Shown piece after piece: positions 18,971 through 42,558 of a stretch of DNA of 64,000 nucleotides. The notes under the pieces were generated by a model, which did not search any database, was not told the DNA's origin, and saw only the letters and a program-made list of their open reading frames with translations. The DNA lies in assembly GCF_054482525.1 (NCBI RefSeq), contig NZ_CM137006.1; one strand, given 5' to 3'. Each line of letters starts with the position of its first letter. Positions within the stretch are counted from its first letter, which is position 1. The translations under genes were made by a program, and so were the position numbers.

Positions 18971-18992
18971 TTTAAATGGTGCGATAATAGGA
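18971..18992. repeat. Distal att-like direct repeat (degenerate copy of tRNA-Thr 3' end)
   Basis: tttaaatggtgcgataatagga matches tttgaaatggtgccgataatagga at 42535..42558 with two single-base gaps. Confidence 0.5.
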
Positions 18993-19170
18993 ATATAACA
19001 CACCACATATATTCTTTGATAAATATGACTATTTTCTTGTTTCATCTTTATAAATGCCCCCTTTTGTGCCCCCACCTTGTTTTTCATGCGACTCGATGAG
19101 ACTTTCATCGAGTCGTTAATCTCATCAAATTCTTCACGTATCGTGGAAACCTTCGCAGATCTCCATCCCC

Positions 19171-19539
19171 TCACAGCCGTGATCGGCTAAGAACAATATT
19201 ACTTACCTCCCTGTAAGAACACCGGCTCATCAGCCCGCACGCTTTCCTGGCTTGAAGAATGTCTGTCGCAGTCAAATATGGTGCTTGTACCTGAGAGGTA
19301 AATCCATTGCGATCAATACGAACTAACTCATATTTCTCTACCAGAAAGTTAACGGCATTAGCCAGAGTGATACCGGCATCGATATGCTCCTTTATAACGG
19401 TTTCATCGCTAAAAGGTGTGTCGCTTAGCATTAGGCCATAGTGCTGCTCAAGCAGACGAGTAAGTAACATTTGCCAGATTGCAACGGGCGACAGACAGGG
19501 CTTCGCCGCCCGCGAAATTGTAGCAGGTAGATTTTTCAT
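19171..19539 (-). CDS. cbtA: CbtA/YeeV/YkfI-family toxin (type IV TA)
   Basis: Start trimmed to [36 protein letters not shown], closely resembling remembered CbtA/YeeV; ATGA overlap with upstream antitoxin. Confidence 0.8.
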
Positions 19540-19877
19540 GTTTGCTCTCGTGAAATTTGTTTGCGCTGAGGGGGATAAATGGCGATGTATACGTAGCCGC
19601 AACTACCAAGGGTATCGGCTTCGCAGGTGAAACCGTTGTGGTACAGGGTGACACAGTGGGCATGGCGGGGATTCATTTCACCAGTGGTCAGCATCGATTC
19701 CATCTGACTGATAAAATGTGGAAATACGACATCCAACTTCAGGCTTTCGGCATCACTAAACTTACCGGTGATACTTGCCCGGTCAGCCAGATAGTGCAGC
19801 CGGTTGCCCTCCTGCACCAGACGTGCTCCCAGGCACGGCGTGATATCCCGCTGCAGGCCCCATGTGGGGTTGCTCAT
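19536..19877 (-). CDS. cbeA: CbeA/YeeU/YfjZ-family antitoxin
   Basis: 113 aa; [20 protein letters not shown]...[14 protein letters not shown] matches the YeeU family. Confidence 0.8.
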
Positions 19878-19894
19878 TTATAACCTCTTTATTG

Positions 19895-20116
19895 TCAGTT
19901 CAGGGTAATACTCACCAGACAGGTATAAGGTCCGTTGCGATCCTGGCGGCGTTCGACGTATACCGCCAGCACACTGGAAATGTCAGGAACCACCTTAACG
20001 GTGTATTGACAGACACTGCCATGCCACTGGTATCTGCCAGTGCAGAATCGAACAATGCGGGAGGCCGGATGCTGACGGTAAATCGTCATCGCCAGGCGTT
20101 TACTGATAATTTTCAT
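19895..20116 (-). CDS. DUF987 protein (YeeT/YkfH-like)
   Basis: MKIISKRLAMTIYRQHP...YQWHGSVCQYT resembles YeeT; conserved position upstream of cbeA. Confidence 0.65.
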   Translation of the reverse strand: MKIISKRLAMTIYRQHPASRIVRFCTGRYQWHGSVCQYTVKVVPDISSVLAVYVERRQDRNGPYTCLVSITLN

Positions 20117-20124
20117 GTAATACC

Positions 20125-21032: not shown

Positions 21033-22230
21033 TGATCCTACCCGCGTAATGTGGACACGCTCCTAAGCGAGATTCTGGTTTTCAAACTGTTTCGGGCTGA
21101 GGCCGCCATAATCGCTGTGACGCCGCCAGCGATTGTAATCGCACTTAATCCGCCGTCCGCATGATTTCCCGGCTGATAAAGCGTTCTCCGTGGATACACT
21201 CGACTTTTAACGAGTGTAAGAAGCTTTCCGCACAGGCATTATCATAACAGCAACCTTTTGCGCTCATGCTGCCATGCAGATTATGTCGTTTCAGCAGAGC
21301 CTGATAATCCGCTGAGCAGTACTGCCCGCCACGGTCGGTGTGAATTCGCCGCCACAGCGCCATCTGCAGTGCATCACAGGCAAGTTCTGCCGTTATTTGC
21401 GAGGACACCAACTAGCCAATAATAGCACGCGACCACCAGTCTATAACCACGGCAAAGTATAACAAGCTTTCATCGATGCGAAGGTACGTGATGTCACCAG
21501 CCCACTTCTGGTCCGAGCCACTAGATCTGAAGTCCTGCTTCAGCAGATTCTCCGGCACTGGCTGGTCGTGAGCACAGTAGATTAACGGGCTGAACAGACG
21601 TGAGGTTTTTGCCCGCAGGCCCTGACGACGCGAACTGTTGCTATCGTTTTGATGTTGTATTCCGGCGGCTCGTCTGCAAGACGAGCCGCACCATAACGCT
21701 GTTTTGCCTCAACGAATACCTTACAGACAGCTTCATTGAAGACGCACCGGAACTGTTGCCGATGGCTCAGTTGGGGACGACGCAGACACCAGGTATACCA
21801 GCAGCTGTGCGCCACGCACAGCACCCGACACATAGCTTTGATACTGAACTCAACCTGATATTTTTCGATAAAGATATACTTCATTTCAGGCGCTACGCGA
21901 AGTATGTCGCGCCCTTTTGGAGAATAGCCAACTCATTATCCCGCTCAGCCAGTTGACGTTTGAGGCAGGCAATCTCCGCTGCTTGTGCGCTCTCTCTCAG
22001 AGGATATTGTCTGGTGCAGTTGTTTGTAGAGCTGGGAATCGTAAAGGCTGAGTTCACGGGCGGTAGTGGCCACACCGAGACGTTCGGCCAACTTAAGGGC
22101 TTCTTCACGAAATTCAGGCGTGTGTTGTTTGCGTGACTTTTGTTGATTGATGCTGATTTTGTCATGTGAGCTACCTCTGATTGAGAGTTTACTCGCTTAG
22201 TCCCGTGTCCACTATTGGTGGGTAGGATCA
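21033..22230 (-). mobile_element. Degraded IS3-family insertion sequence (frameshifted orfA, interrupted orfB)
   Basis: Terminal inverted repeats tgatcctaccc (21033) and gggtaggatca (22220); ORFs 21893..22231, 21582..21884 and 21145..21411 match InsE C-terminus ([23 protein letters not shown]) and InsF N- and C-terminal parts, but not as continuous frames. Confidence 0.75.
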
Positions 22231-22579: not shown

Positions 22580-24313
22580 ATGTACATAGCAAAAATTAAA
22601 TTTACAAATTTCAAATCATTCAAAGAGATGTCTTTTGAGTGCAATGATAAATTCAACATAATTGTTGGTGAAAATAATATTGGTAAAAGCACATTATTTG
22701 AGGGGGTAAGTTTATGGAAATATGCTTATGACAACCTTATTCAAGAAAAAAACAAAAACAAATTCTACAAAGCTTCAACTAACTACTACATTACCTATTC
22801 TACACTCGATCAAATAAGACTTGTTGACGATATTGATATTTTTAACGACCCAAAGAATAGCTCCGCATCAATATGCATTACAATTAAAGATGAACAAAAT
22901 GAATTTGATTTAGAGATTAGATTTGAAAAGCCAGGGATTAAAAATTCATACTTACGGATATTTAATAGCAATGGTTCTGATAATGACACACAGTTTTCAA
23001 ACTTTGAACGATTCTCAAACTATATAAAAGAAAAGGATTGCACTCTAAAAGATGCCATTTACATTTACCAAACAAGACCAATATCAACTATTTTTAGAGA
23101 TGAGCCATTTTACAATAATGCGCAGATAGAGAAAAAAATAAATATTGGAAAGTCACATGATGTCTTAAGGAATAAAATATTAAAAACCGAAAATACTCAA
23201 GCCACAAGGGTTGCACAAAAATTTGAAAATCTTGAGATTCGCCTACAAAAAGTCCTTGGTGAAAACTATATCTTAAAATTTAAGAATAGAAATCGAATCG
23301 ATGATGAGTATGTTAAAATAACTGCAACAAAGGAAAACGGGAAAGAATTGGAAATATCACTTATGGGTAGTGGTTTTTTGCAAGTCTTAGAGATATTTTC
23401 AACAATTGAGTATATGGAAAAGAATTCAACCGGTATTAACCTCATTCTTATCGATGAGCCTGATTCACATATCCACTCAAATTTACAAGCAAATTTAATT
23501 GACGAACTAAAGCAACAAACAGCATGTCAAATTTTTGTCATAACACATAATGACAGACTAACATCAAAAGCTAATGAAGGTGAGCTTTTTTATCTAAATC
23601 AGATAGTTAAGGATCTTGGTTTATTGTCTCACCTTGAAATATCTGATTATTCAAAAGTTAAAGATGGTCTAGCTAATGTACTAACAGCTATAAATGATGG
23701 AGATGAAACACCCATTGTTATAACTGAAGGAAAAACGGACCAGAAAATTTTAACAACTGCTTGGGAAAAGCTAAACCCAGGAACTCCTATGCCTTTTAAA
23801 ATAATTTCATCCGGCATTCAAATTGAAGAGGAAAAAAGAACTGGGTGCGCAGAGGCAGTTAGAAGATCTTTAGAATACATTTCAACATTAACTGATAGAA
23901 CAATTATCGGTTTATTTGATAATGATCGGGAGGGAAATGAGCAGTTCAAAGGATTAAATCGTTCTATTTTTGAACCTCATGACCTGCAAAATAACTCCCG
24001 AAAACATCAGATAAAAAATATCTATGGGCTTATTCTTCCCGTTCCTGTGCATAGAGAACGTTTTGTACAAAACAATTCTTTAACGCAGCGTTACTTCGTA
24101 ATTGAACAATATTTCCAAGATGAAATATTACTACAGCATAACATGAAAGGTGAGTCAATATTAGGTACTGAGGTATTTTTTGTTAATGACTCAAGAAAGA
24201 ATGAGTTTTCAGAGTCAACCAATGACCTTCCGGTAGAATGCTTTGGGGATTTTAGTATTTTATTCGATAAAATTTCCGATTTATTGGCTAACAATAGACC
24301 AGAAAACACTTGA
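22580..24313 (+). CDS. OLD-family ATP-dependent endonuclease (ABC-type ATPase + C-terminal TOPRIM)
   Basis: Walker A GENNIGKST, Walker B/H-loop LILIDEPDSHIH, TOPRIM glutamate IVITEGKTD and DxD motif FDNDREG; 577 aa; strongly AT-rich codon usage. Confidence 0.7.
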   Translation: MYIAKIKFTNFKSFKEMSFECNDKFNIIVGENNIGKSTLFEGVSLWKYAYDNLIQEKNKNKFYKASTNYYITYSTLDQIRLVDDIDIFNDPKNSSASICITIKDEQNEFDLEIRFEKPGIKNSYLRIFNSNGSDNDTQFSNFERFSNYIKEKDCTLKDAIYIYQTRPISTIFRDEPFYNNAQIEKKINIGKSHDVLRNKILKTENTQATRVAQKFENLEIRLQKVLGENYILKFKNRNRIDDEYVKITATKENGKELEISLMGSGFLQVLEIFSTIEYMEKNSTGINLILIDEPDSHIHSNLQANLIDELKQQTACQIFVITHNDRLTSKANEGELFYLNQIVKDLGLLSHLEISDYSKVKDGLANVLTAINDGDETPIVITEGKTDQKILTTAWEKLNPGTPMPFKIISSGIQIEEEKRTGCAEAVRRSLEYISTLTDRTIIGLFDNDREGNEQFKGLNRSIFEPHDLQNNSRKHQIKNIYGLILPVPVHRERFVQNNSLTQRYFVIEQYFQDEILLQHNMKGESILGTEVFFVNDSRKNEFSESTNDLPVECFGDFSILFDKISDLLANNRPENT

Positions 24314-25088
24314 TACTGTACTGCATTTTCCATATCGAGCTAAAACGGACCATTCGCTTTTAAAGTGATTACGGCATACGGGACAGATTTTCCTTAAAGC
24401 AAACGTCTCCTTCACGCCCTGAGACATTCGACATTAAGTAAGAACGGGGGTGCGCCTCGAGTGCCAGCAAATATTTTGCTTCGTCGTAGCGGGTTCTGGT
24501 CATCCAGCAGCTGTAAATGATCCTTATCCATTTATACGCCAGAGCCCAAATGGCTGATTGATGCGATTTTCCTTTTCTTCGCAGCTCTTACTAATAAAGT
24601 CTGGCCCAGAATGATGAGTTAATCGTCTTTGCAGCCCATTCCACGAATGTCTGTCGGACGAGCTCCGCACATTGCCAACATCAGTGTACCCAAGATTTCT
24701 GGCCGCTTTGTTCTGTCACCGGAAAAATACCTGCGTAGTTTTGAATTTCTTCAGCGCAGTTTAACTGGTCACGGTTACTTGAAGAAAGAAACTGACCACT
24801 GCGCTCGTCGTTCGGAAGTGCCAGGGCTATCGGTGGATATTAAGGGAAACCTGACAGCCGGAGGTAATCAGGGTTATTAATGCCGTCAGTGTGGGCCCCG
24901 CTACCAGTGAAACACTAATGTATTGATTAAGTTTCATATTCTTCCTTAATGAAAATAAGCATGTTTTCTTTTGCTAAATCAGTCGTCGTTGGCGATGAAA
25001 CCGGCTCACACATCACGCGATTGTTAAATGAAAAAGCCCCTATTGCGTGAGCAACAGGGGCTATATTTATTTTGTGTCTATAGAGGCA

Positions 25089-25499
25089 TCAGTAACCAGT
25101 TTTAACCTTGTACATCAATAGTGTTTTACTGCCCCGGACAATTTTCACATACAGGGCATTATCTTTCGTGCCTCGCACAAAACCGGCCTGCACATCGCCC
25201 TTACAGTCACCACCGTCGTAAGGAATATTGACACCTGTCTGACGCACCAGATCAATAACCCCGAAGCTTAAGTCCTCACAGGCCGGGCCCGGCAGGTCCT
25301 GAATCAGGGCAAATTTATGGTCGTCGCTGACACCGGTCAGTGAGCACATGGAGGTATTGATGTCGTTTCCCTGGCACCAGTACTCCTGACCGGGATTATC
25401 TTTATCCATCAGACTTGCCGGAAGCTGAGCGGCACCGGCACTGAAGGCGGCAAGTGACAGAATGAGGGCGGGTACAGCAGAGGTCATTATTTTCAGCAT
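25089..25499 (-). CDS. Hypothetical secreted Cys-containing protein
   Basis: Signal peptide MLKIMTSAVPALILSLAAFSAGAA; 136 aa. Confidence 0.5.
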   Translation of the reverse strand: MLKIMTSAVPALILSLAAFSAGAAQLPASLMDKDNPGQEYWCQGNDINTSMCSLTGVSDDHKFALIQDLPGPACEDLSFGVIDLVRQTGVNIPYDGGDCKGDVQAGFVRGTKDNALYVKIVRGSKTLLMYKVKTGY

Positions 25500-25565
25500 G
25501 GTTTTCTTCCTGAATTAATCCAGCCCGCTGTCGGGCAAAATGAGGGAGGTTGGTATCGGGTATTA

Positions 25566-26003
25566 TCAGAAGCGCCGGTAGCGAAACAGCTCTTTGCCCT
25601 GGTAAAGTGCCACCAGGTCGTCATATTCCGGCTTCTTCTGGTTGGGCTTAAAGGTCACTACCGTGCCCGGACGGCACAGATCTTTTACGGTGAGACCGAA
25701 TTTCCTATCCGGAGTAATGGTGAATCCCTTCGACACATCGTTGTGCATGATAGTTATCCAGCCCCACAGGCCGCCTTCGCAGTCCTTAAAGGGTGCTGAA
25801 CGAACTGTTACCATCCCACCCAGGCGGTCAACAGACATGGCTTCACATTTTCCGGTAACCTGTCGATGCGCATCACACCAGAAAATATTCCCGTTGTTGT
25901 CATTGACGACTGCAGGTAGCGTTCGGTTATAAGGCTGAGCCTGAGCGCCCACACAGAGCAGAAGGCTGCCGGTAATACCCAGTACTTTAATCAGTGTTTT
26001 CAT
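25566..26003 (-). CDS. Hypothetical secreted Cys-containing protein (possible paralog of 25089..25499)
   Basis: Start trimmed to MKTLIKVLGITGSLLLCVGAQA signal peptide; similar size and Cys/Trp spacing to the neighbour. Confidence 0.5.
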   Translation of the reverse strand: MKTLIKVLGITGSLLLCVGAQAQPYNRTLPAVVNDNNGNIFWCDAHRQVTGKCEAMSVDRLGGMVTVRSAPFKDCEGGLWGWITIMHNDVSKGFTITPDRKFGLTVKDLCRPGTVVTFKPNQKKPEYDDLVALYQGKELFRYRRF

Positions 26004-26044
26004 TACGTTGGTCCTTAACAGAGAAAGAATCAGGTAGCAGTCAT

Positions 26045-26581
26045 TCAGGCCCAGACGGTCAGGCCCAGCATCAAAAGCCATACCCAGAAGTAAGCCGGTT
26101 TCTGACCGAGAGTTTTCGCCCGCCGCCACAAATAGAACGGCACCAGCCAGGCCAGTTTGCCGAACGTGGTAGTGTCCACTCCGGCCTTACGAAGGCGTCG
26201 TTCATCGAGATACCCCAGAGCGATATTGAGCAGCAGCGTGATAAACCAGTACTGCCCACCCGAGACGGCATCATATGCCTCGTCAAATGACATCCCGCTC
26301 AATCCTGCAGTCCACAACTCCAGCGCGTAGCCAATGAAGGGAGCAAATGCAAGCGTCCACACAACGCCACCCGGAATGCGGTTCCCCGTCAGCGCTGGCG
26401 GTGTGGTGCTGTGGAGCAGCGCCGAAGCCAGCGGGGTGGCGGAGACCGGTTGCCAGTCCGGCATGCCCTGTCGCCACACCAGCGTGGCAGCGGTGAGTTC
26501 ACCGCGCTTAATCAGGTTAGTGATGTCGTCTTCGGTCACATTGTCGTGACGTATGCCATTTTTCTCGTAATGCCAGGTCAT
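26045..26581 (-). CDS. Membrane protein with N-terminal DUF4339/GYF-like domain
   Basis: N-terminus WHYEKNGIRHDNVTEDDITNLIKRGELTAATLVWRQGMPDWQPV followed by hydrophobic helices. Confidence 0.5.
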   Translation of the reverse strand: MTWHYEKNGIRHDNVTEDDITNLIKRGELTAATLVWRQGMPDWQPVSATPLASALLHSTTPPALTGNRIPGGVVWTLAFAPFIGYALELWTAGLSGMSFDEAYDAVSGGQYWFITLLLNIALGYLDERRLRKAGVDTTTFGKLAWLVPFYLWRRAKTLGQKPAYFWVWLLMLGLTVWA

Positions 26582-26606
26582 TGTTTTTCCTTCTTAACAG
26601 AGGTAA

Positions 26607-27317
26607 TTAAATCAGTGTATTGCCATGCTCCTCCTCAGAGGGCCCATGAGACAGGACTTCGCGAATACAGCTGAAGTGCGGAAGAGCCCGAATAAAGCCC
26701 GCCTGTGTGGTTAACTGGCTGAGACGTTTTCGCGGGGTAAAAGTGGTGTTCAGGACTGTCACCGCATGGATGGTCGCCAGAGGGTGCACAGTGATATGCC
26801 CGTTAAGTTCACCGGTGAGGTACCAGCAGCCGTCGAGTGATATCAGGCGGTACGGAGCCAGCCCGTCACAGCGCTCTCCCTCGGCCAGCAGCAGTACCCG
26901 CTGGCAGGCGGTAATGGCACTGACGAGACGGTAGAACACCAGTGAGATGGTCGGTGACACAGACTGTGGCGGCTGCCATACCAGACACGGCATCCCTCCC
27001 GCAGTGAGCAACATGCCCGCCAGACGCCGGTCCAGCCCCGGAAAAATATCGGCCAGTCCGGCCCGGTGTGCGAAGGTCAGCGCATCAAGCTCCCCCTGTA
27101 CGCCCCCACCGGTGCTGCGCAGGCGGCATTGCCCCCGTCGATACTCAAGGTCGAGGTACATCAGCCGTTCGCGAAAATCCCGTCGCAGGGTACGGACTGA
27201 CACACCAAACTCTGCAGCCAGCCGCGCCATGTTCAGCGTTTCACCGGCAACCAGGCGGCTGATTATCAGTGACAGCCTGACAGCCAGCCGGTCATGACGG
27301 CGATCTGCCTGTGTCAT
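26607..27317 (-). CDS. HTH + WYL-domain transcriptional regulator
   Basis: N-terminal HTH (LNMARLAAEFGVSVRTLRRDF) and WYL motif (LISLDGCWYLTGE). Confidence 0.7.
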   Translation of the reverse strand: MTQADRRHDRLAVRLSLIISRLVAGETLNMARLAAEFGVSVRTLRRDFRERLMYLDLEYRRGQCRLRSTGGGVQGELDALTFAHRAGLADIFPGLDRRLAGMLLTAGGMPCLVWQPPQSVSPTISLVFYRLVSAITACQRVLLLAEGERCDGLAPYRLISLDGCWYLTGELNGHITVHPLATIHAVTVLNTTFTPRKRLSQLTTQAGFIRALPHFSCIREVLSHGPSEEEHGNTLI

Positions 27318-27525
27318 CTTAAATCTCCGTAATAATTAACTGACTGAATATGAAATGATTCTAAAGAGGGGGGCGGACAGGGTATGGACACGGAATGAAC
27401 TATTTTTTATCTGCCACCGGAAGCAGGTCTGACGCGGTGCTCCGTGAAATACGATGAAAAAACACCCAATCAAATGGAGGTAAAACGGACAGGGAGTGTC
27501 CTTTCCCAACATACTGATAACAAGC

Positions 27526-28365: not shown

Positions 28366-28445
28366 GATGGGAAAATAAAGACAGAAAAGCCCTACCGCTC
28401 AATCGCGGCAGGGCTCAGGAAACTACGGGTTAGAAGGGTTAATGT

Positions 28446-32630: not shown

Positions 32631-32640
32631 GGGACGGATA

Positions 32641-33024: not shown

Positions 33025-33351
33025 TGATACGTACCAGGCAATCATGGGATTGATTGGTACACCAGAAAGTTATTATATGGGGGCATATAACTTCGGAGTA
33101 AAAATCAATCACTTTCTATCATCCGGCCCCTGGTGCTTGTGGATTCGTAATTCATAAACCATGACGGGTTGGTAATATTAATTAACCAACTGATATATAA
33201 ACAATATTATCTCATTGTCACGCTCATATACGGTTACTCATACACGACAGCCTTAATTGCTGGCATCACCCTTTAAATCCTTAATCCCTTTAACAGCCCA
33301 TTGCGGGTAAGGCTTTGCCCTGCCCGTAATTTATTACCCAAGGAAAATTAT

Positions 33352-34753: not shown

Positions 34754-36853
34754 ATGAACCGAGAGCAAGCCCAACAACTGCTGCAGACTGCTTTGGCTAA
34801 CCCTGCTGCTGAATTTCGTGATGGTCAGTGGGAAGCCATTGATGCATTGGTTAATCGTCGTCAGAAACTACTGGTTGTACAGCGTACCGGCTGGGGTAAG
34901 AGCTCGGTTTATTTTATTAGTACTAAAATCTTCCGTGACCGCGAGATGGGGCCTACGATTATTGTATCGCCACTGCTTGCATTAATGCGTAACCAGATTG
35001 ATTCAGCGCAGCGTTTGGGAATAGTTGCCGAAACAATGAATTCGGCTAATAGGGAGGATTGGCAGGCTGTAACTCAACGAATTCTCAATAACCAAATAGA
35101 CTGTTTGCTCATTTCCCCAGAGCGGCTAGCAAATGATACCTTTATTGAGACGGTCCTTCAGCCCATTGCCGATCGAATCGCCCTAATGGTAATTGACGAA
35201 GCACACTGTATTTCAGATTGGGGTCATGATTTTCGTCCTGATTATCGCCGTATCGTAAATATCCTTCGTCAATTGCCCGCCAACACCCCAGTACTAGGTA
35301 CGACTGCAACTGCCAATAACCGAGTTGTTGACGATATCCAAGCCCAGCTTGGGGATATACAAATCCACCGAGGTCCTCTTACTCGCGAAAGCCTCGCTCT
35401 GCATACAATGTCTTTACCCGATCAGGCATCTCGTTTAGCTTGGCTCGCCCAAGTTATTCCGATGCTACATGGAACAGGCATTATTTACGCATTAACAGTT
35501 CGTGATGCCGAGCAGGTGGCAGAATGGTTGAGCATGCACGGTATAGTTGCCATGGCATACCACGGTAGCATCGAGGCTGAAGGTTTTGAGAACAGCAATG
35601 CTTACCGTCAGTACTTAGAAGAATTGTTACTTAACAACCAGCTTAAGGTTTTAGTAGCAACGACCGCGTTGGGTATGGGTTATGATAAACCTGATTTAAG
35701 TTTTGTAATCCATTACCAAGCTCCGAGTTCAATTGTTGCATACTACCAGCAGGTGGGTCGGGCTGGGCGCGGTATTGCTCATGCAACAGGTGTACTGATG
35801 TCGGGGATAGAAGATAACGACATCCATGATTTTTTCCGTGATTCTGCATTTCCATCGGAGGATCAAGTTAACGATATTCTTCGAGTGTTGGAAAATAATG
35901 ATGGTCTATCACTCCGCAACATCGAGGAAAAAACTAACCTACGCCACGGCCAGATTGAGAAAGTACTTAAGTTACTGAGTGTAGAAAATCCAGCCCCCAT
36001 CATTAAAAATGAAAATCGTTGGGTTAGGACCACAGTTCGCTATCAAATGGATCATGCCCGAATTGCTCATTTGACAGGACAACGTATTCAGGAATGGGAA
36101 GAGGTTCAAGCGTACCTTACCGACACTGGATGCAAAATGGCATTTCTACGTCGTTCTCTGGACGATCTCGACCCAACTCCATGTGGTAAATGCTCGTCCT
36201 GTATTGGTCAACCAATTATAAATCAAATCATTGACCCTGCTTTGGTACATCGTGCAGGGACTTTCCTAAAACATGCAGAAATGCCGATTACTCCAAAAGC
36301 TCAGGTAGCAGCTAATGCTTTTTTGCAATATGGCTTCAGCGGCAATTTGCCACAGCAGATTAGAGCACAAGAAGGTCGAGTGTTGTCTCGCTGGGGAGAT
36401 GCTGGTTGGGGACGGTTAGTAGCCGATAATAAACGTGCAGATCACTTTGATGATGAGCTAGTGGTTGCTATGGCCGAGATGATTCAGCAGCGTTGGCAAC
36501 CGAATCCAGCGCCACAATGGGTATGCTGTGTACCTTCACGCAATCATGTACAATTAGTCCCTGATTTCGCTCGCCGCTTGGCGGCATGTTTGAGGTTGCC
36601 TTTTTTCAATGCCATCAGCAAGGTTAGAGATAACCAACCTCAAAAGGGGCAACAAAACCGTTTCCATCAATGCCGCAATCTGGACGGTGCTTTTGAGATA
36701 AATCAACCTCTACCTAACACACCGGTTCTACTTGTAGATGACATTGTAGATTCAGGCTGGACGTTAACTGTCATCGCAGCACTCCTACAACGCGCAGGTA
36801 GTGGTAAAGTATACCCTGTTGCACTTGCTTCATCTTCGGTAAAAGACTCATGA
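34754..36853 (+). CDS. RecQ-family helicase fused to a C-terminal phosphoribosyltransferase-like domain (PsyrT-like)
   Basis: Helicase motifs GWGKS (I), DEAH (II), TATA (III), QQVGRAGR (VI); C-terminal type-I PRTase motif VLLVDDIVDSGWTLT. Confidence 0.8.
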   Translation: MNREQAQQLLQTALANPAAEFRDGQWEAIDALVNRRQKLLVVQRTGWGKSSVYFISTKIFRDREMGPTIIVSPLLALMRNQIDSAQRLGIVAETMNSANREDWQAVTQRILNNQIDCLLISPERLANDTFIETVLQPIADRIALMVIDEAHCISDWGHDFRPDYRRIVNILRQLPANTPVLGTTATANNRVVDDIQAQLGDIQIHRGPLTRESLALHTMSLPDQASRLAWLAQVIPMLHGTGIIYALTVRDAEQVAEWLSMHGIVAMAYHGSIEAEGFENSNAYRQYLEELLLNNQLKVLVATTALGMGYDKPDLSFVIHYQAPSSIVAYYQQVGRAGRGIAHATGVLMSGIEDNDIHDFFRDSAFPSEDQVNDILRVLENNDGLSLRNIEEKTNLRHGQIEKVLKLLSVENPAPIIKNENRWVRTTVRYQMDHARIAHLTGQRIQEWEEVQAYLTDTGCKMAFLRRSLDDLDPTPCGKCSSCIGQPIINQIIDPALVHRAGTFLKHAEMPITPKAQVAANAFLQYGFSGNLPQQIRAQEGRVLSRWGDAGWGRLVADNKRADHFDDELVVAMAEMIQQRWQPNPAPQWVCCVPSRNHVQLVPDFARRLAACLRLPFFNAISKVRDNQPQKGQQNRFHQCRNLDGAFEINQPLPNTPVLLVDDIVDSGWTLTVIAALLQRAGSGKVYPVALASSSVKDS

Positions 36854-38175
36854 ATGTATCTAACTTATTGTCAAAAACAGCCCAGGCGACCTTACTTCTG
36901 ACTAGTTATTTTTCTAAAGCAACTAGCGAAAACGCCAAACCACTTTCCAACGCCGAATGGGGACGTTTTGCGCTATGGTTGAAAGAAAAAGCAGTTACGC
37001 CAGCTGACTTGTTGGACTCTGATCCTCAAACCTTACTGAATGGCTGGTACGACTCCCGTATCAGTACGGATCGGATCATTGAGTTGATGAATCGAGGACA
37101 TAGCCTCGCTTTGGCTATGGAGAAATGGCAACGGGCAGGCTTGTGGGTAGTGACACGTTCTGATCCAGAATATCCATGGAGATTAAAACATCGGCTTAAA
37201 ACAGACTCTCCCCCTGTTTTATTTGGCTGTGGCAATAAAGCCTTATTAAATAGAGGGGGATTGGCTGTCATTGGTTCTCGAAATGCCAATGCATCAGACC
37301 TTACTTTTACTGATCACATCGGCGTTAAAGCTGCGGACGAAAATATAGCTGTTGTATCTGGTGCTGCACGTGGAGTAGACGAAACAGCCATGTTAGGTGC
37401 AATGAGGCAAGGTGGAGTTGTAATCGGGATTTTGGCAGATAGCCTGTTAAAAGCTGCGACTAGTGCCAAATGGCGCAAGGGGCTTATGAATGACCATGTT
37501 GTGCTAATATCCCCTTTTTACCCTGAGGCTGGTTTCTATGCGGGAAATGCCATGGCTCGCAATAAATATATCTATTGCTTGTCGGATAGTGCATTGGTTA
37601 TTCATTCTGGTCGAAAAGGTGGAACAATTAGTGGGGCAGAGGAAAATCTTAAGAAAGGATGGGTGCCACTATGGGTCAATCCAACAACCGATCTAGATTC
37701 AGCTAATGCTGACTTAGTGAGCAAAGGGGGACATTGGTTGCCAAGTGATAGTAATGGCCTATCCATCGAGAATTTGCTTAAAAATAATGACAGATCAAAA
37801 ATGCAGTTAAAAGCAGAGCCCCAAGATCTTTTTTCAGAATTGTCGCATCCAGAATTAATTATTGGATCTGCAGAGAAATCGTCAACTCAAGCTCTCGAAA
37901 AAGATTGGACTGCTACTATTAATGAAGAAACTCCCAACCTAATAACTACGGAAAAAAAATTAGAGGAAAAAGAGTTAGATGTAAATCCTATAGACTTTTA
38001 TCTGCTATTCAGGACAGAATTACAGCGATTGGCCGAACATCCAATTACAGTAGATAGGTTGACAGAAGTCACTGGGTTGAATAAATCGCAAGTGCTTGAT
38101 TGGTTGAAACGTGCTGAACAAGATGGTTTGGTAAAAAAACTAAACCGTCCTACAAGATATCAATTAAATGAGTAG
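36850..38175 (+). CDS. DprA/Smf-like Rossmann-fold protein with C-terminal winged helix (PsyrA/ShosA-like)
   Basis: DprA core LAVIGSRNA...VVSGAARGVDETAMLGA...GGTI; ATGA start/stop overlap with the upstream helicase gene. Confidence 0.75.
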   Translation: MNVSNLLSKTAQATLLLTSYFSKATSENAKPLSNAEWGRFALWLKEKAVTPADLLDSDPQTLLNGWYDSRISTDRIIELMNRGHSLALAMEKWQRAGLWVVTRSDPEYPWRLKHRLKTDSPPVLFGCGNKALLNRGGLAVIGSRNANASDLTFTDHIGVKAADENIAVVSGAARGVDETAMLGAMRQGGVVIGILADSLLKAATSAKWRKGLMNDHVVLISPFYPEAGFYAGNAMARNKYIYCLSDSALVIHSGRKGGTISGAEENLKKGWVPLWVNPTTDLDSANADLVSKGGHWLPSDSNGLSIENLLKNNDRSKMQLKAEPQDLFSELSHPELIIGSAEKSSTQALEKDWTATINEETPNLITTEKKLEEKELDVNPIDFYLLFRTELQRLAEHPITVDRLTEVTGLNKSQVLDWLKRAEQDGLVKKLNRPTRYQLNE

Positions 38176-38356: not shown

Positions 38357-39346
38357 TTATGTCTTTCTTTCAAGTGCAACTCCTAGATCCGCTGCCATTT
38401 TTTGGATTAGCCTCCAATCTAGCGGCCATTCTTTTTCTAAAGTAGATCTCCGTCTTTTGATTAACCAGTAAACGAAAATAACAACGCTTTGTTCAAAGAA
38501 ACTACTCCCTTCTTTGCCATCCTGAATTAGTAGTTCGAGCTCAGGAGTCTCTTCTATAAATTGATGTAATCTTTCTATCGTATCGGGTTTGATCACTTCT
38601 TTAAATGTATCTAGAATTAATAAAGTCGATTTTTGATTGTTTGGTTTATTCTTTGTTAAAGCTATGTAGATATTATCTAAAGTTCGCTGAATTCCTGCGT
38701 AACCATCAGATGCTGCGTTAATTGCTTTCGATACTGAACAGAAAAAATCATCCGTAGTTTCTATTAACGCCATGCTTTTTGCTACAGTTCTATGTATATC
38801 TGGTTCAACTATAGTTTTTGCTTTATATATGGCATCATGAGTTAACTCGGCATAGGCATGTTGTAATAAAGATCTAACCTGTATCTCACATGGAATGCCT
38901 TGTTCAATGATAACTCCATTATAATCAAAGGATTCTTTTGCAGTTACTATAAAATGTACGGATTGATACGTGAAAATTAATGGTGTATTTAATCTTTCTT
39001 CTTCGTAGTGTCTTGATGTCTTATAATGCCATTTATTACTACTTTTTATTATTTCACATATTTCATCTATATCTGAAGTAAGTAAAACGACAAACCTGAT
39101 GCCAACTTTATCTTCAATCTCTTGGTAGGGGTTTTTGTATGATTTTTCTTTTCGATGAAAAGCTTTATCGATTAGAGATGTCTTTTCTTTTATTCTCGGT
39201 GTCGCAGGTTGCTTGAGAAAGCTATTGAGGTCCCGCTCTTTATTTTCTGAGAGTTCTTTGCAAATATTTGAGACGACAAAATCTCCCCATGCTTTATACA
39301 TGGGTAGTTCTTTTTCCCAAAGTTGCGAAAACTCTAATTCATTCAT
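38357..39346 (-). CDS. RelA/SpoT-fold nucleotidyltransferase (toxSAS-like)
   Basis: Synthetase-domain signature PRIKEKTSLIDKAFHRKE, GIRFVV, YQSVHFIV and CEIQVRSLLQHAYAELTHDAIYK (EIQIRT..QHxWAE..H..YK); AT-rich. Confidence 0.7.
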   Translation of the reverse strand: MNELEFSQLWEKELPMYKAWGDFVVSNICKELSENKERDLNSFLKQPATPRIKEKTSLIDKAFHRKEKSYKNPYQEIEDKVGIRFVVLLTSDIDEICEIIKSSNKWHYKTSRHYEEERLNTPLIFTYQSVHFIVTAKESFDYNGVIIEQGIPCEIQVRSLLQHAYAELTHDAIYKAKTIVEPDIHRTVAKSMALIETTDDFFCSVSKAINAASDGYAGIQRTLDNIYIALTKNKPNNQKSTLLILDTFKEVIKPDTIERLHQFIEETPELELLIQDGKEGSSFFEQSVVIFVYWLIKRRRSTLEKEWPLDWRLIQKMAADLGVALERKT

Positions 39347-39354
39347 TAATTAGC

Positions 39355-40446
39355 TCATTCCTGAAGGGTTATCTTGTCCTTGATGAGGATTGTTGTCCAC
39401 TCAGCAGGTTTACCATCTTTATCGAGTTCACCTATAGTAGATTCAATTACAATATGGCTTTTAAAAACTTCCGCAGGGGCTGTGATTTTTATATTTTTAC
39501 TAAAGTTAAGCTTTCTTGTTTTTAATTTGCTTTCAATATGCTCGTTGTCTCTTGTGAAAGAGGTTTGTGGTATACCAGATTCATGAGCATACTCAAGATA
39601 AAGATCCTTAATACTATCATCAAAAAATCTTTCAGCATAATCTTTAGCTGAAATTACATCCGATTTTTCATGTTTAAGATATGTAACTAATGCATTTTTA
39701 AGCACATTTTTCTTTTCCTCGCTGACATCCAATTCATTAAGAAATTCACTCGTTTTTTCATAGAAATTCTTTGTTGTGCGGGCACTTGTTTCTGGGTAAC
39801 CGCAACCTAAAAAATTTTGATAAAAATATTGTGCTGCAGCTTTACCATCCGACTTACTGATTTGATAGTCAGAAATCATCACATCCCAAGATTTATTAAG
39901 ATCAGTATTATCAAGAGAATTGGTTGATTGGAAAAAACCGGCAGTTTTATAAAGTTTTGTGGATGGTGTAAGTAATATTTCTTCAACGAATTTTAATGAT
40001 ATTTGGCCCGTTTTATCGTCGATTACTTTTTCATATGCACTATAAATATCAGCCTTGATAATTCCAATGAATTTTCTTTTATTTACACCATAGTCGCCAG
40101 AAAAGATTACTACAATTCCGCCTGGAATTGCTCGTCTTGTCTGCGCATCTGCCAGTTTATTAGCTATTGTGTAAGTCTCATCAATATAATCCTCTCCCTC
40201 TTTATCAATTAAAGTTGTAGCAATATAAGGAACATAATCTTTTCCATGCTCCTTTATTTGCATTTTTACGGCTTTAGAACCATCACCTAAAGCGTCGATT
40301 ACTCGTGATTTAAAACCTTGCAAGGCATCAGCATCAAATTTTATAAATGAAGAACCTCTTGTTGGTTCTATTTTGTTTCCTTCTTCGTCGCGCTGATGAA
40401 TTTGGTGGATAATTATTTTGTTAATATTCATTTTGCTGATATTCAT
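39355..40446 (-). CDS. NA37-family nucleoid-associated protein homolog (YejK/NdpA-like)
   Basis: Similarity along the whole length to remembered YejK: N-terminus INKIIIHQIHQRDE vs INQIALHQLIKRDE, and central and C-terminal blocks; AT-rich. Confidence 0.65.
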   Translation of the reverse strand: MNISKMNINKIIIHQIHQRDEEGNKIEPTRGSSFIKFDADALQGFKSRVIDALGDGSKAVKMQIKEHGKDYVPYIATTLIDKEGEDYIDETYTIANKLADAQTRRAIPGGIVVIFSGDYGVNKRKFIGIIKADIYSAYEKVIDDKTGQISLKFVEEILLTPSTKLYKTAGFFQSTNSLDNTDLNKSWDVMISDYQISKSDGKAAAQYFYQNFLGCGYPETSARTTKNFYEKTSEFLNELDVSEEKKNVLKNALVTYLKHEKSDVISAKDYAERFFDDSIKDLYLEYAHESGIPQTSFTRDNEHIESKLKTRKLNFSKNIKITAPAEVFKSHIVIESTIGELDKDGKPAEWTTILIKDKITLQE

Positions 40447-40463
40447 TTCTGTGTAGTTCCATC

Positions 40464-40931
40464 TTATTGATTATCTGATTTTATATTTTTGCTTTCAATA
40501 TATTCTTTGTGAATATTATTCCATTCTTGACTGTCTTTTTCCCAAATAGATTTATATTCATCAAAAAGACTATCAATATCTGACTGGGTTACATCTTCTT
40601 TGGATTTTAAGTAATTAACTTTGTTTCTAAGTTGATACATGGCTAGCAAAGTAGCTTTTTGCCTAAACCATAATTTTTGATAATCAAATCTTGCAGTCCA
40701 CCCACTAACTAGAGTAAGACAGGCACTCACAATAAGAGCAGAATTTTTCTGTATTTTTTCATATCCAGATAAATCGAAGGCTAATATCAGTGTAGTAATA
40801 GTGCTCAAAAATATAGTCATGAAAAAAAATATTTTTAATTTTTTTTTATTCCATTTCGCCTTGCACTTTATTATGTTGATACTTTTATGGATTTCATCCA
40901 GTAAAAACTGTTGAGAAGATGTTATAGACAA
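40464..40931 (-). CDS. Small 2-TM membrane protein, SLATT-like
   Basis: Two hydrophobic helices (FFFMTIFLSTITTLILAF, ALIVSACLTLVSGW) followed by a charged helical tail; first gene of the three-gene operon. Confidence 0.5.
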   Translation of the reverse strand: MSITSSQQFLLDEIHKSINIIKCKAKWNKKKLKIFFFMTIFLSTITTLILAFDLSGYEKIQKNSALIVSACLTLVSGWTARFDYQKLWFRQKATLLAMYQLRNKVNYLKSKEDVTQSDIDSLFDEYKSIWEKDSQEWNNIHKEYIESKNIKSDNQ

Positions 40932-41175
40932 TTATCTCACCTGAAATATTTTCACATTGGTAATAAAACTACTCGCACTAACTGGTATGAGCTCATACCA
41001 GTTAGTGCGAGCATGGCTACCGCATTTGATGTGCTCAACAGCTTTGTATTGAGATACTTTTAACAATGTTGTATTTAACTAGCTGATACTATTAATTATA
41101 AATGAGAATCAGAGCAAAAACGAGCGGTAGGTAAGATATAGACCGAAAGCATATAAAACCATAAATATCAAATCA

Positions 41176-42378
41176 TTACACTACCGCATGTAAGATTCTA
41201 CGTACAGAGTGTAGATCAATCAAATAGTCTGAATACCACTGCATCATCTCTCTTCGCCCCTCCAGATATTGCGCATGGTTGTACGTCCCACGAATCGCAT
41301 TCTTATCGACATGCGCAAGCTGGGTTTCAATCCATGCCGTGTTGAACCCTTCCTCGTGCAAAATCGTACTCATCGTGTGACGGAAACTATGCCCCGTTAC
41401 CTTCCCCGTATACCCAATCCGTTTGAATACCTGATTAATACTCGCTTCACTCATCGTTTTACGTGGATCATTGCGCCCTGGGAACACCAAAGGATATTGC
41501 CCGGACATTACTTTGAGCTGTTGTACGATTTCTAGCGCTTGGGTAGAGAGGGGTACAAGATGGGGCCGTTTCATCTTCATACGCTCTGCAGGTATTTCCC
41601 ACACCGCTTTCTCAAGATCAAACTCACTCCAGAAAGCACCTCGAAGCTCGCCAGTACGAACTCCCGTAAGGATAAGCAGACGAGCGGCAAGAACAACTAA
41701 CGGGCTTCCTGTATAACCTGCGAGAGCTTTAAAGAAGTCTGGTAACTCCTCTACTGACAGGAAGGGATAATGCTTCGATTCATGCCCTGACATCGCGCTG
41801 GTTAGGTCCGCTGCAGGATTGTATTCCGCGCGACCTGTAACGATGGCATAACGAAAGACTTCGCTGCAGCGCTGGCGAACCTTCTTGGCCTTCTCTGTCG
41901 CGCCACGGCTTTCGATTCGACGCAGCACATTAAGCAGAACCAGCGGTTTGATTTCATTCACTGGCAGTTGGCCGATATAGGGGAAAATATCTTTATTGAA
42001 GGCTTCGATAATATCGGAGGCATAGCCTTCTGACCACCGGCTCACCTTAGTACCGTGCCACTCAAGCGCCACAGACTGGAACGTGTTGTTGAGCTGCACA
42101 TCGCGAACCAGCTTTTCTTCTTTCTTTGCGAAAGACGGGTCGATACCCTCGGCCAGCTTTTTCTTGGCTTCATCACGCAGAGCCCTCGCTTGTGCAAGGG
42201 AAACAGCCGGATAGACCCCAAAAGCCATACGCTTCTCTTTTCCATTGAAGCGATATTTCATTCGCCAGTATCGAGAACCAGAGGGAACGACTTCAAGATA
42301 CAAGCCAGCACCATCTGCCAGCTTATAGGCTTTCTCTTTGGGTTTAGCAGCGTCTACCTGTCGCGCATTAAGCTTCAT
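41176..42378 (-). CDS. P4-type tyrosine integrase
   Basis: Start trimmed to MKLNARQV; catalytic motifs GVRTGELRG, HSFRHT, LAHVD..RGTYNH; immediately adjacent to the tRNA-Thr 3' end. Confidence 0.85.
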   Translation of the reverse strand: MKLNARQVDAAKPKEKAYKLADGAGLYLEVVPSGSRYWRMKYRFNGKEKRMAFGVYPAVSLAQARALRDEAKKKLAEGIDPSFAKKEEKLVRDVQLNNTFQSVALEWHGTKVSRWSEGYASDIIEAFNKDIFPYIGQLPVNEIKPLVLLNVLRRIESRGATEKAKKVRQRCSEVFRYAIVTGRAEYNPAADLTSAMSGHESKHYPFLSVEELPDFFKALAGYTGSPLVVLAARLLILTGVRTGELRGAFWSEFDLEKAVWEIPAERMKMKRPHLVPLSTQALEIVQQLKVMSGQYPLVFPGRNDPRKTMSEASINQVFKRIGYTGKVTGHSFRHTMSTILHEEGFNTAWIETQLAHVDKNAIRGTYNHAQYLEGRREMMQWYSDYLIDLHSVRRILHAVV

Positions 42379-42534
42379 TGGGGGCATCTCCCTGGACCGA
42401 ACACAGAATGCCCCCACTTATGCCCCCAACTGCGACTTGATTTCGGTTGAGTCCAGTTGATAACAGGAGATAAGATACGGGCCAGAAACCGCAGTATACG
42501 GGCTTTTAGTTGATTTCGGTAGACTTGGGAAGAG

Positions 42535-42558
42535 TTTGAAATGGTGCCGATAATAGGA
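42535..42558. repeat. Proximal att-like repeat overlapping the tRNA-Thr 3' end
   Basis: tttgaaatggtgccgataatagga; partner at 18971..18992. Confidence 0.5.

Follow-up and report, generated by a model that had tools for sequence, protein, structure and literature searches.

Organisation of the thrW region

The window (the whole stretch of 64,000 nucleotides analysed here) carries an intact thrW gene for tRNA-Thr(CGT) on the minus strand (42542-42617; predicted by ARAGORN, Rfam tRNA score 71.8 bits), adjoined by an integrase gene in the same orientation as the tRNA. The features that delimit the region are as follows.

42542..42617, minus: thrW, tRNA-Thr(CGT), the integration target (ARAGORN, Rfam tRNA)
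42539..42558: proximal, attL-like att core, AAA and the final 17 nt of thrW
42379..42538: integrase-proximal arm, 160 nt, from the int start codon to the core
41176..42378, minus: intact P4-type tyrosine integrase, 400 aa (Pfam architecture, identity to P4 Int)
40970..41013, minus: perfect 20+20-nt palindrome followed by GTTTTATT (inverted-repeat detection)
18993..19170: distal arm, 178 nt, from the core to the cbtA stop codon, with copies of the ATGCCCCC/TGCCCCCA motif
18974..18992: distal, attR-like att core, the displaced thrW 3' end AAATGGTGC-GATAATAGGA, one C fewer in the window

The 20-nt core AAATGGTGCCGATAATAGGA at 42539-42558 comprises the last 17 nt of thrW and AAA, and the second copy, AAATGGTGC-GATAATAGGA at 18974-18992, has the same orientation and lacks one C. 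A search for the core 20-mer with one edit allowed gave exactly two matches in the whole 64-kb window and none in 200 shuffles; the two copies are 23,566 nt apart from start to start. Across 48.7 kb, the window differs from the RefSeq record NZ_CP051753.1 by four substitutions and one deletion; this sole deletion is the missing C at 18982, and since the public record carries the perfect 20-mer, the repeat is imperfect in this window only. E. coli SCU-102 in RefSeq has the perfect core repeat at this locus. The ATGCCCCC/TGCCCCCA motif is also found in the integrase-proximal arm, and 8-9-mers are common to both arms. The related, independent island of XH992 has a near-identical distal arm and ends in the same core, likewise 178 nt past cbtA.

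The integrase contains the Arm-DNA-bind_3, Phage_int_M and Phage_integrase domains of Pfam, aligns with P4 Int at 44% identity over 404 aa and retains the catalytic residues R241, H330-x-x-R333, H356 and Y366. Its identity to the integrase carried by the BREX island of E. coli HS is 96%, and it is unrelated to IntF of CP4-6, with which only 88 aa align at 26%. The core is located 160 nt upstream of int, as compared with 151 nt in P4. The palindrome, located just upstream of the SLATT operon described below, is likely to be the intrinsic terminator of int, and its dyad is maintained in Pectobacterium by changes on both arms.

Empty site and distribution

A query for the empty site, in which window positions 18400-18992 were joined to 42559-43150, aligned in one piece to 15 complete E. 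coli genomes, with a coverage of 100% and an identity of up to 99.9%. In one of these, PCN033, the truncated SDR gene, the integrase fragment (see below), thrW and proA follow one another without interruption, and the accessions of the flanking proteins are identical. As the flanks are joined at thrW in the 15 genomes, the island proper (18993-42558) is a precise insertion of 23,566 bp. The initial annotation had placed an island of about 23.6 kb at thrW, from 18971 to 42558, bracketed by an imperfect direct repeat of the tRNA 3' end and beginning with an intact P4-type integrase beside the tRNA; each of these statements holds, the limits being right to within 3 nt.

The alignment to K-12 and to genome collections that it had proposed, besides defining the att sites and the 15 empty sites, located the island in just one of the 5,426 complete E. 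coli genomes. The island is present in hundreds of draft and other assemblies, at the same position in those examined; in its description as a strain-specific variant of a known hotspot, the term strain-specific was therefore too strong. Integrases with about 91-93% nucleotide identity occur in 214 of the 5,426 genomes, and the cassette at 34246-40512 is found again, at 98.8% identity, in chromosomal surroundings unrelated to these.

Left flank and an older prophage scar

On the outside the region is flanked by paoABCD and proAB, which is also the case in K-12. This earlier observation stands in a refined form, in that about 5.3 kb of chromosomal genes absent from K-12 (an MFS transporter, a hydrolase, a LysR regulator, ykgR', a hypothetical gene and a truncated SDR gene) lie between paoD and the island. 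Two features adjoin the distal core.

18240..18793, minus: truncated SDR-family oxidoreductase gene without its N-terminus, chromosomal flank outside the island (RefSeq annotation)
18804..18962, plus: 3' fragment (159 nt) of an SfII/SfV/SfI-type (P22-related) phage integrase, outside the island (sequence identity)

Window positions 18804-18992 are 96% identical to the integrase 3' end and attP of the Shigella phages SfII, SfV, SfI and SfIV, and P22 is 79.5% identical. FORC_082 has an entire prophage whose integrase gene runs towards thrW, and its integrase-thrW junction matches that of the window. The SDR gene is intact in O157:H7 strain 7636, while PCN033, with its empty site, has the identical truncation; it is at the truncated gene that the deletion meets the scar of the old prophage. 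On these identities, the integrase fragment fused to the truncated SDR gene is what an earlier prophage left behind at thrW, a scar older than the island. The fragment, just left of the repeat, had been missed in the initial annotation. In O157:H7, a true P4-like satellite with primase-helicase, psu and ogr/delta genes occupies the space between the same flanks.

Backbone genes

19171-19539, minus: CbtA toxin of a type IV toxin-antitoxin pair (RefSeq name; Pfam CbtA_toxin on the identical protein)
19536-19877, minus: CbeA/YeeU antitoxin of the same pair (RefSeq name; Pfam CbeA_antitoxin on the identical protein)
19895-20116, minus: DUF987 gene
20125-20586, minus: RadC-like JAB protein gene
21033..22230, minus: decayed IS3-family element with 39-nt terminal inverted repeats (annotation)
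24453..24776, minus: transposase fragment, a pseudogene flanking the OLD gene opposite the IS3-family element (annotation)
25089..29309, minus: backbone block (annotation, PHROGs, Pfam)
29432..30490, minus: hypothetical protein, 352 aa, no family match
31784..31996, plus: AlpA-type helix-turn-helix protein (PHROG 'excisionase and transcriptional regulator'; Pfam Phage_AlpA)
32097..33963, plus: 177-aa hypothetical protein, zinc-ribbon protein and YagK/YfjJ protein
33352-33963, plus: the YagK/YfjJ ('inovirus Gp2') family protein

The block at 25089..29309 encodes two paralogous hypothetical proteins (phrog_8968), a GYF_2/DUF4339 protein, a DeoR-like regulator, a DUF932 protein (YafZ/YfjQ-like) and a GTPase (YkfA/YfjP-like). 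The 352-aa protein has no match in PADLOC, NCBIfam or PHROGs and its DNA is found in one of the 5,426 complete genomes; its C-terminus, judged by eye, looks like a ribbon-helix-helix domain. The AlpA-type protein is likely to be the excisionase or activator of the integrase. The IS3-family transposase carries a frameshift and an internal stop, and a YagK/YfjJ-like pseudogene remnant lies near 31000-31300. Among the genes of the island, none was recognised as serving replication, packaging or conjugation.

In its backbone the island belongs to the CP4-57/CP4-44 type. It shares with these K-12 elements and with the modules of CP4-6 a tRNA or tmRNA target with an adjoining P4-type integrase, the AlpA, YagK/YfjJ, GTPase, DUF932, RadC-like and DUF987 genes, and the CbeA/CbtA pair at the far end. 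However, the antirestriction and DUF905 genes of these relatives are missing, IS debris and an OLD-type nuclease being found where they stood. Just two backbone modules are common to the island and CP4-6, namely the CbtA/CbeA pair (19171..19877; about 79% nucleotide identity to ykfI-yafW) and 27140-29394 (79% identical to yafZ-ykfA), and in CP4-6 their orientation relative to thrW is opposite. As K-12 also lacks the defence cargo and IntF is a different integrase, the proposal of a content distinct from CP4-6 is upheld.

Putative defence cargo

Three sets of putative anti-phage genes are carried by the island, and the G+C content drops to 31-35% across this cargo.

34754..38175, plus: PsyrTA (RqlHI) system (PADLOC, NCBIfam)
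34754-36853, plus: PsyrT, RecQ-like helicase with a C-terminal phosphoribosyltransferase-like region
36850-38175, plus: PsyrA, DprA-like
38357..40931, minus: three-gene operon fitting type I PANGU (Pfam RelA_SpoT, NA37, SLATT)
38357-39346, minus: RelA/SpoT small alarmone synthetase, 329 aa (Pfam RelA_SpoT)
39355-40446, minus: NA37 nucleoid-associated protein (Pfam NA37)
40464-40931, minus: SLATT protein with two TM segments (Pfam SLATT; NCBIfam SLATT_1, 1e-24)
22580..24313, plus: solitary OLD-type nuclease, 577 aa, ABC-type ATPase and Toprim (Pfam, PADLOC, Foldseek)

PsyrT matches its PADLOC model over almost its full length (E=0; residues 2-698 against model positions 2-688 of 689), as does PsyrA (E=7e-170), and the NCBIfam matches are to the RecQ family, the ComF/GntX region and DprA. 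The two genes overlap by 4 nt, and no difference from known PsyrTA/RqlHI systems was noted. The allele was not found at the DNA level among the remaining 5,425 complete E. coli genomes.

The genes of the SLATT operon (G+C 31-34%) are separated by 17 and 8 nt, their catalytic motifs are conserved, and the SLATT, NA37 and RelA/SpoT trio is kept together in Ferrimonas sp. and Pectobacterium. Type I PANGU is described as a Pag1A NAP with a Pag1B GRel toxSAS, a SLATT gene being optional and present in 'several Cluster1 operons' (bioRxiv 10.64898/2026.04.06.716658, 2026 preprint). Likened by description, the two share an NA37 gene adjoining a synthetase of about 330 aa with an extra C-terminal domain, and the described family is gammaproteobacterial, as here; in contrast, the C-terminal domain of the island synthetase is not net acidic by residue count. 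The operon fits the description of a type I PANGU defence system.

The OLD-type nuclease gene (G+C 32-35%) is flanked by IS debris on both sides. Residues 1-345 match AAA_21, AAA_15 and SMC_N of Pfam, with Walker A (GENNIGKST) and Walker B (LILIDEPDSH) motifs, and the Toprim motifs are ITEGKTD and FDNDREG, the E, DxD and G being invariant in 26 homologues. PADLOC matches include GajA, AriA and a PtuA-type ATPase, and Foldseek matches include PtuA, GajA and Thermus OLD. P2 Old, Gabija GajA and Thermus OLD have the same order of an ABC ATPase and then a Toprim domain bearing the E and DxD motifs, and the single-gene locus is like that of class 1 OLD; in Aeromonas, a homologue is found on its own with core genes on either side. 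However, whole-chain TM-scores against GajA and OLD are low (0.27-0.30), and as no tblastn match was obtained in 50,697 phage records, the protein is not close to P2 Old. IS remnants, CbtA/CbeA and these genes together account for the mobile, toxin-antitoxin and defence-like cargo predicted earlier.

A close parallel is the E. coli HS BREX island, which has the same thrW site, the closely similar integrase, the zinc-ribbon backbone gene and defence cargo directly downstream of the integrase, this cargo being BREX type 1 and an HsdM-like cluster instead of the trio and PsyrTA. The integration module resembles that of P4 in its 20-nt att core 150-160 nt upstream of int and its tRNA 3'-end target; however, P4 targets leuX, and its replication, capsid-size and transactivation genes are absent from the island.

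Origin of the island

These data are best explained by a single integrative island, inserted at thrW by its own P4-type integrase after an earlier prophage had left its scar, and carrying phage-defence genes (probability about 0.9). An SfII/SfV-type prophage had integrated at thrW first and was later almost wholly deleted, leaving 159 nt of its integrase fused to the truncated SDR gene, and the island then inserted beside this scar. By site-specific recombination, the integrase most probably joined a copy of the thrW 3' end carried by the element to the chromosomal thrW, regenerating the tRNA gene and displacing the old 3' end to the far side as the distal repeat. The low-G+C segment beside the integrase is a variable slot, now holding the type I PANGU-like operon and PsyrTA, whereas the OLD-type nuclease probably entered the backbone together with IS elements. 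The decayed backbone (IS3 pseudogene, transposase fragment, YagK/YfjJ-like remnant, missing genes) counts against this explanation, as do the base missing from the distal core and the lack of recognised genes for replication, packaging or conjugation.

The same decay is consistent with a fixed remnant that arrived long ago by means of the integrase and has since been passed on vertically or transferred only through homologous recombination between flanking core genes, a less probable reading that fits the lack of recognised transfer and replication genes, the single site in all assemblies examined and the one-base deletion in the distal core, which could hamper excision in the window. It is countered by the full-length integrase with all catalytic residues, the intact alpA gene, the identical cores in RefSeq and the genomes that have the very same flank and scar without the island, which imply that it was gained, or cleanly lost, within a short time. 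Excision is known for K-12 relatives such as CP4-57. The island may still be able to excise, probably driven by AlpA, and CbtA/CbeA may stabilise it.

Two tandem elements, a small integrase and defence island at thrW and a separate CP4-type element beyond it, are improbable. Such a structure would agree with the mosaic G+C, the cassette (34246-40512) that travels without the backbone in another organism, and the arrays that form at thrW, as in HS and XH992, with a P22-like prophage on the far side of the integrase, and in L022 and L023, with a further prophage adjoining the island. However, no third core copy exists inside the region with up to three mismatches or one indel allowed, there is a single integrase, presence or absence is all-or-none at the two cores, and XH992 and HS show this integrase joined to this backbone as well. 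A P4-like satellite or defective prophage, as suggested by the K-12 name 'CP4-6 prophage', the P4-type integrase, the AlpA-type regulator and the O157:H7 satellite, is very improbable, as the annotated and scanned genes include no homologues of primase-helicase, sid, psu or delta and no capsid, tail, terminase or lysis genes. Chance similarity of the repeat at 18974-18992, with the true boundary elsewhere, was a concern of the initial annotation; it would be favoured by the shortness of the repeat and its one indel in the window, but is refuted by the shuffles, the XH992 end, the contiguity in PCN033 and the empty-site alignments, which break exactly at the core in 15 genomes.

The thrW island is an ordinary mobile genomic island, well delimited, and not a new kind of element. 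Each of its cargo systems is predicted from its family membership to have anti-phage activity, and the island would act as a carrier of phage-defence genes.

Boundaries of the island and the empty integration site

ARAGORN and Rfam identify a single tRNA gene, thrW, encoding tRNA-Thr(CGT) (minus strand, 42542-42617); an Rfam search of 17000-43500 at gathering thresholds returned thrW alone, the long intergenic stretches giving no match to a known ncRNA. A 20-nt core, AAATGGTGCCGATAATAGGA, which comprises AAA and the last 17 nt of thrW, occupies 42539-42558, and a second copy, likewise oriented and one C short, occupies 18974-18992. With at most one edit allowed, the core occurs twice in the window and not once in 200 shuffles. 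Thus, the initial annotation was correct in observing that a repeat of the thrW end brackets the region, and the coordinates that it gave (18971-42558) are off by no more than 3 nt. Compared with RefSeq NZ_CP051753.1 (E. coli SCU-102, a rectal-swab isolate), the window has 4 substitutions and 1 single-base deletion over 48.7 kb, the five positions being 18982 (the deletion), 7537, 21808, 24011 and 52153. As the sole deletion is the missing C, the core repeat is a perfect 20-mer in NZ_CP051753.1. A thrW remnant with the identical missing C is present in an O157:H7 strain (locus L004, 15691-15711).

The comparative alignment proposed earlier for defining presence or absence and the att sites was performed with an empty-site query, in which window 18400-18992 was joined to 42559-43150, against 5,426 complete E. 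coli genomes. The joined query was recovered as one unbroken alignment in 15 genomes, with identities of up to 99.9% and with the two flanks meeting at the core. Therefore, the island is a precise insertion of 23,566 bp, 18993-42558, a size equal to the spacing of the repeats, and the reading of the region as an integrative island with a P4-type integrase at thrW is supported. In PCN033, an empty-site genome, the gene order is MFS transporter, hydrolase, LysR, truncated ykgR, hypothetical, truncated SDR, integrase fragment, thrW and proA, and the flank protein accessions are identical to those of SCU-102. The island regenerates the tRNA 3' end and carries a direct repeat at its far end, the arrangement of tRNA islands with P4-type integrases. 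In XH992, an independent relative whose integrase has 93.5% nucleotide identity, the island end likewise runs from cbtA through a near-identical 178-nt arm to a thrW-derived core.

The integrase lies next to the tRNA gene:

41176-42378, minus strand: P4-type tyrosine integrase, 400 aa, recognised by its Pfam domains

These domains are Arm-DNA-bind_3 (DUF4102), Phage_int_M and Phage_integrase (6e-29, 1e-33 and 8e-23, respectively), and the catalytic residues R241, H330, R333, H356 and Y366 (R, H-x-x-R, H, Y) are all present. P4 Int is 44% identical to the protein over 404 aa (E=2e-119), and the distance from the core to the int start codon is 160 nt here and 151 nt in P4. The integrase of the E. 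coli HS BREX island is 96% identical, IntF of K-12 CP4-6 is essentially unrelated, and relatives are found in 214 of the 5,426 genomes.

The motif ATGCCCCC/TGCCCCCA recurs in both arms of the island: the distal arm (18993-19170) has two copies and the integrase-proximal arm (42379-42538) three, one of them inverted, along with two copies of TTGATTTCGGT. These repeats are candidate arm-type binding sites of the integrase. A perfect palindrome of 20+20 nt with a T-rich tail lies at 40970-41013, between the int stop codon and the start codon of the SLATT gene, and scores as an intrinsic terminator; the arms of the Pectobacterium palindrome are unlike those of E. coli in sequence, yet pair with each other.

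An older phage scar and the chromosomal flanks

A second integrase sequence adjoins the distal core:

18804-18962, plus strand: integrase fragment, from annotation

In SfII, SfV, SfI and SfIV, which are Shigella serotype-converting phages, the 3' end of the integrase gene with attP is 96% identical to the fragment and its neighbouring core; for P22, the identity is 79.5%. An origin of the fragment as a remnant of K-12 IntF was rejected, the DNA having no similarity to the K-12 locus there and a 96% match to the Sf-type phage integrase. In FORC_082, an entire prophage of the Sf kind is present at thrW, its integrase converging on the tRNA gene, and in a three-way alignment the left junction of the island matches the phage-thrW junction as far as GATAATAGGA, beyond which it departs into island sequence. 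Fused to the fragment is an SDR gene that lacks its N-terminus and has an intact counterpart in O157:H7. As the junction between the truncated SDR gene and the integrase fragment also occurs in empty-site genomes, the sequence of events is that an Sf-type phage integrated at thrW and its prophage was deleted down to a 159-nt scar, after which the island integrated at thrW; read inversely, the island was later lost precisely.

The flanks had been described as those of K-12, which holds for paoABCD on one side and proAB on the other and is refined by chromosomal genes between paoD and the island. These genes, at 13626-18072, encode an MFS transporter, an alpha/beta hydrolase, a LysR regulator, a ykgR fragment and a small hypothetical protein, and are absent from K-12, which retains the yagP LysR fragment only. 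At least 80% of window 13400-19250 is found in 423 complete genomes. On the right flank, RefSeq annotation places prfH and rtcB pseudogene fragments and lateral-flagella remnants (lafU and an flhA fragment) at 50510-51065 and 53643-54700.

Backbone and class of the element

From thrW outward, the island consists of the integrase, a cargo slot, YagK/YfjJ ('inovirus Gp2'), a zinc-ribbon protein, a 177-aa protein and an AlpA-type HTH protein; a 352-aa orphan, a GTPase, DUF932, a DeoR-like regulator, a GYF_2 protein and two small paralogues; and IS debris with an OLD-type gene, RadC, DUF987, CbeA, CbtA and the distal core. AlpA, YagK/YfjJ, the GTPase, DUF932, RadC, DUF987 and a terminal CbeA/CbtA together make up the CP4-57/CP4-44-type layout. 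The backbone identities are taken from annotation or RefSeq names and precomputed Pfam families; NCBIfam gave no match for CbtA, CbeA, DUF987, the DeoR-like protein or the hypotheticals.

Neither the annotation nor a PHROG scan of the island revealed primase, capsid, tail, terminase, relaxase or mating-pore genes. Thus, the island is not a P4-like satellite, a prophage or an ICE. The P4 satellite genes for the primase-helicase (alpha) and sid/psu/delta were likewise absent from the annotation and the scan, whereas the O157:H7 occupant of the same site does carry P4-satellite genes.

The content had been considered distinct from that of K-12 CP4-6, and this holds, only two modules of the backbone being shared, at ~79% nucleotide identity and in the opposite orientation relative to thrW. 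The antirestriction (YafX/YfjX) and DUF905 (YkfF) genes of K-12 and XH992 are missing from the island, their position being filled by an IS3 pseudogene, the OLD gene and a transposase fragment. In CP4-6 itself (K-12 locus L002, 3899-38206), the CbtA-type end abuts thrW and intF at the far end points to thrW, the reverse of the canonical arrangement seen in the island; IntF may use its att site in another orientation, or the locus may have been rearranged.

The 352-aa orphan (29432-30490) has no match in PADLOC, NCBIfam, PHROGs or precomputed Pfam, and its C-terminal 40 residues resemble, by eye, a ribbon-helix-helix DNA-binding motif. Upstream of alpA, a 1.3-kb stretch without an annotated gene contains a 95-aa ORF (30995-31282; remnant to ~31570) resembling the start of YagK/YfjJ (inovirus Gp2-type). 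Elsewhere such a gene lies directly upstream of the HTH gene, and the ORF is probably a decayed second YagK/YfjJ copy.

Defence-related cargo

The mobile, toxin-antitoxin and defence-like cargo noticed in the initial annotation is indeed present, in the form of the IS debris, CbeA/CbtA, PsyrTA, an OLD-type gene and a set of three close-set genes on the minus strand of the cargo next to the integrase:

40464-40931, minus strand: SLATT two-transmembrane protein (NCBIfam SLATT_1, 1e-24)
39355-40446, minus strand: NA37/YejK-type nucleoid-associated protein (NAP; Pfam NA37 2e-17, residues 12-326)
38357-39346, minus strand: RelA/SpoT synthetase, 329 aa (RelA_SpoT, residues 51-177)

The gap between the NA37 and synthetase genes is 8 nt. 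The synthetase carries an extra C-terminal domain and is a member of a large gammaproteobacterial family; the motifs RxKxxxS, DxxGxR, FTYQSVH (with the G-loop Tyr, Y127), EIQxR and HDxxYK are kept in 7 homologues. The NA37 and synthetase gene pair is kept in three genera, and the full trio occurs in Ferrimonas sp. and Pectobacterium, with order and close spacing kept at protein identities of 45-74%. In Ferrimonas sp. SCSIO 43195, the homologue of the synthetase shares 51% identity with it and lies in the identical three-gene context, and the Pectobacterium trio resides in another P4-integrase island.

The trio was not recognised as a set by PADLOC v2 (2023). Type I PANGU is described as an NA37 protein with a GRel-type small alarmone synthetase, in which the NAP turns an inactive synthetase tetramer into an active heterotrimer, pppGpp is made and infection is aborted, the trigger being genome degradation induced by phage; some PANGU operons also have a SLATT gene, which is mentioned and untested there (bioRxiv 10.64898/2026.04.06.716658). 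The systems examined in that study come from Ferrimonas futtsuensis (PANGU-Ff) and E. coli (PANGU-Ec). A simple residue count of synthetase residues 215-329 gave 17 acidic and 17 basic residues, with homologues alike, and so lent no support to the acidic DNA-mimicking C-terminal domain of the type I PANGU effector. A PDB sequence search returned no deposited PANGU chains, weak matches only to RelQ/RelP-type synthetases and nothing for the NAP. The trio is probably a type I PANGU system, its assignment being kept at that level because the residue count shows no acidic C-terminal domain.

A tentative reading, to which we assign roughly one chance in three, is that the SLATT gene serves the NA37 and RelA/SpoT system as a functional third component and is not a passenger. 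As one possibility, the SLATT protein may act at the membrane as an effector that the alarmone, or the activated complex, opens. If true, this would amount to a two-pronged abortive response, combining nucleotide depletion with membrane damage, which is absent from the published two-gene PANGU systems.

PsyrTA is a toxin-antitoxin pair and a defence system. PsyrT, the toxin of such pairs, is a 699-aa RecQ-like helicase that is covered over its full length by the PADLOC PsyrT model (E=0, residues 2-698) and has a C-terminal ComF/GntX-like (PRTase-like) region at residues 606-692; PsyrA, the antitoxin, is a 441-aa DprA-like protein (PADLOC PsyrA, E=7e-170), and the two genes overlap by 4 nt. Judged by these family models, the island pair is PsyrTA. 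Its G+C content is ~45%, compared with 31-35% for the other cargo blocks.

The OLD-type protein (577 aa) is the product of a solitary gene, with IS remnants on both sides and no partner helicase. It matches the Pfam AAA_21, AAA_15 and SMC_N ATPase families, with Walker A GENNIGKST and Walker B LILIDEPDSH; the Pfam search gave no Toprim match, and the Toprim motifs ITEGKTD (E383-G384) and FDNDREG (D447-x-D449) are invariant in 26 homologues. An ABC ATPase, the Toprim Glu and DxD and a stand-alone gene are the features of class 1 OLD proteins. In Foldseek, the structure predicted for the protein (mean pLDDT 78) finds PtuA, GajA and Thermus OLD as matches, the full-length alignments to GajA and Thermus OLD having E ~1e-12 and low TM-scores. 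An Aeromonas homologue stands solo amid core genes. Searching 50,697 phage records with tblastn gave no match, and the protein is therefore not a close relative of P2 Old.

Distribution and the exchangeable cargo slot

Nucleotide searches of the 5,426 complete RefSeq E. coli genomes placed each of four parts of the island, namely the trio, PsyrTA, the OLD gene and the orphan region, in just 1 genome, and megablast of the PsyrTA and trio cassette against 72,556 plasmids gave no match and so pointed to no plasmid source. Among public assemblies, the identical synthetase protein is indexed in 631 blocks, which, where read, share the context proA-thrW-int-trio-PsyrTA-backbone; for the identical OLD protein the index has 51 blocks, in which the left flank is the same. 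Since many assemblies share the context, the island is lineage-associated and not unique to one strain; of the earlier description as a strain-specific variant of a known hotspot, the hotspot stands and the strain specificity does not. The first reading is thus refined by an older phage scar, extra chromosomal genes absent from K-12 and a wider distribution.

A 6.3-kb cassette (34246-40512) with PsyrTA, the NAP and the synthetase is 98.8% identical to positions 1-6266 of a Logan contig (L011, SRR22895661), where its neighbours are a MalT-like regulator and acetoin-dehydrogenase-type genes, the contig ending before the SLATT gene. This is a different chromosomal setting, probably in another genus. 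Behind the same integrase family, the HS thrW island carries BREX, in contrast to the trio and PsyrTA here, and XH992 likewise has different cargo behind its integrase. The cassette in the Logan contig, the Pectobacterium trio island and the differing cargo of HS and XH992 show that the integrase-proximal slot is exchangeable, in agreement with the report that defence hotspots of E. coli are in many cases tRNA loci with varied mobile elements (PMC10121019).

Elements also gather in tandem at thrW. HS and XH992 have a P22-like prophage beyond the island integrase, and two public assemblies with this very island (L022 and L023) have, beyond its integrase, a prophage carrying an EcoRII restriction-modification system.

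Significance of the locus

At this locus, defence-gene delivery to E. coli can be followed cleanly and to the base: one P4-type integrase family brings different defence cargoes to thrW and one tRNA end is reused successively by unrelated phages and islands. The island-free genomes with an identical flank and scar are near-natural controls for the effects of the island. The island belongs to a well-known kind and leaves the current understanding of genomic islands unchanged; its fresh part is a three-gene SLATT variant of a defence class, PANGU, described only in 2026, and it supplies a native E. coli copy of an operon for a SLATT protein, a nucleoid protein and an alarmone synthetase.
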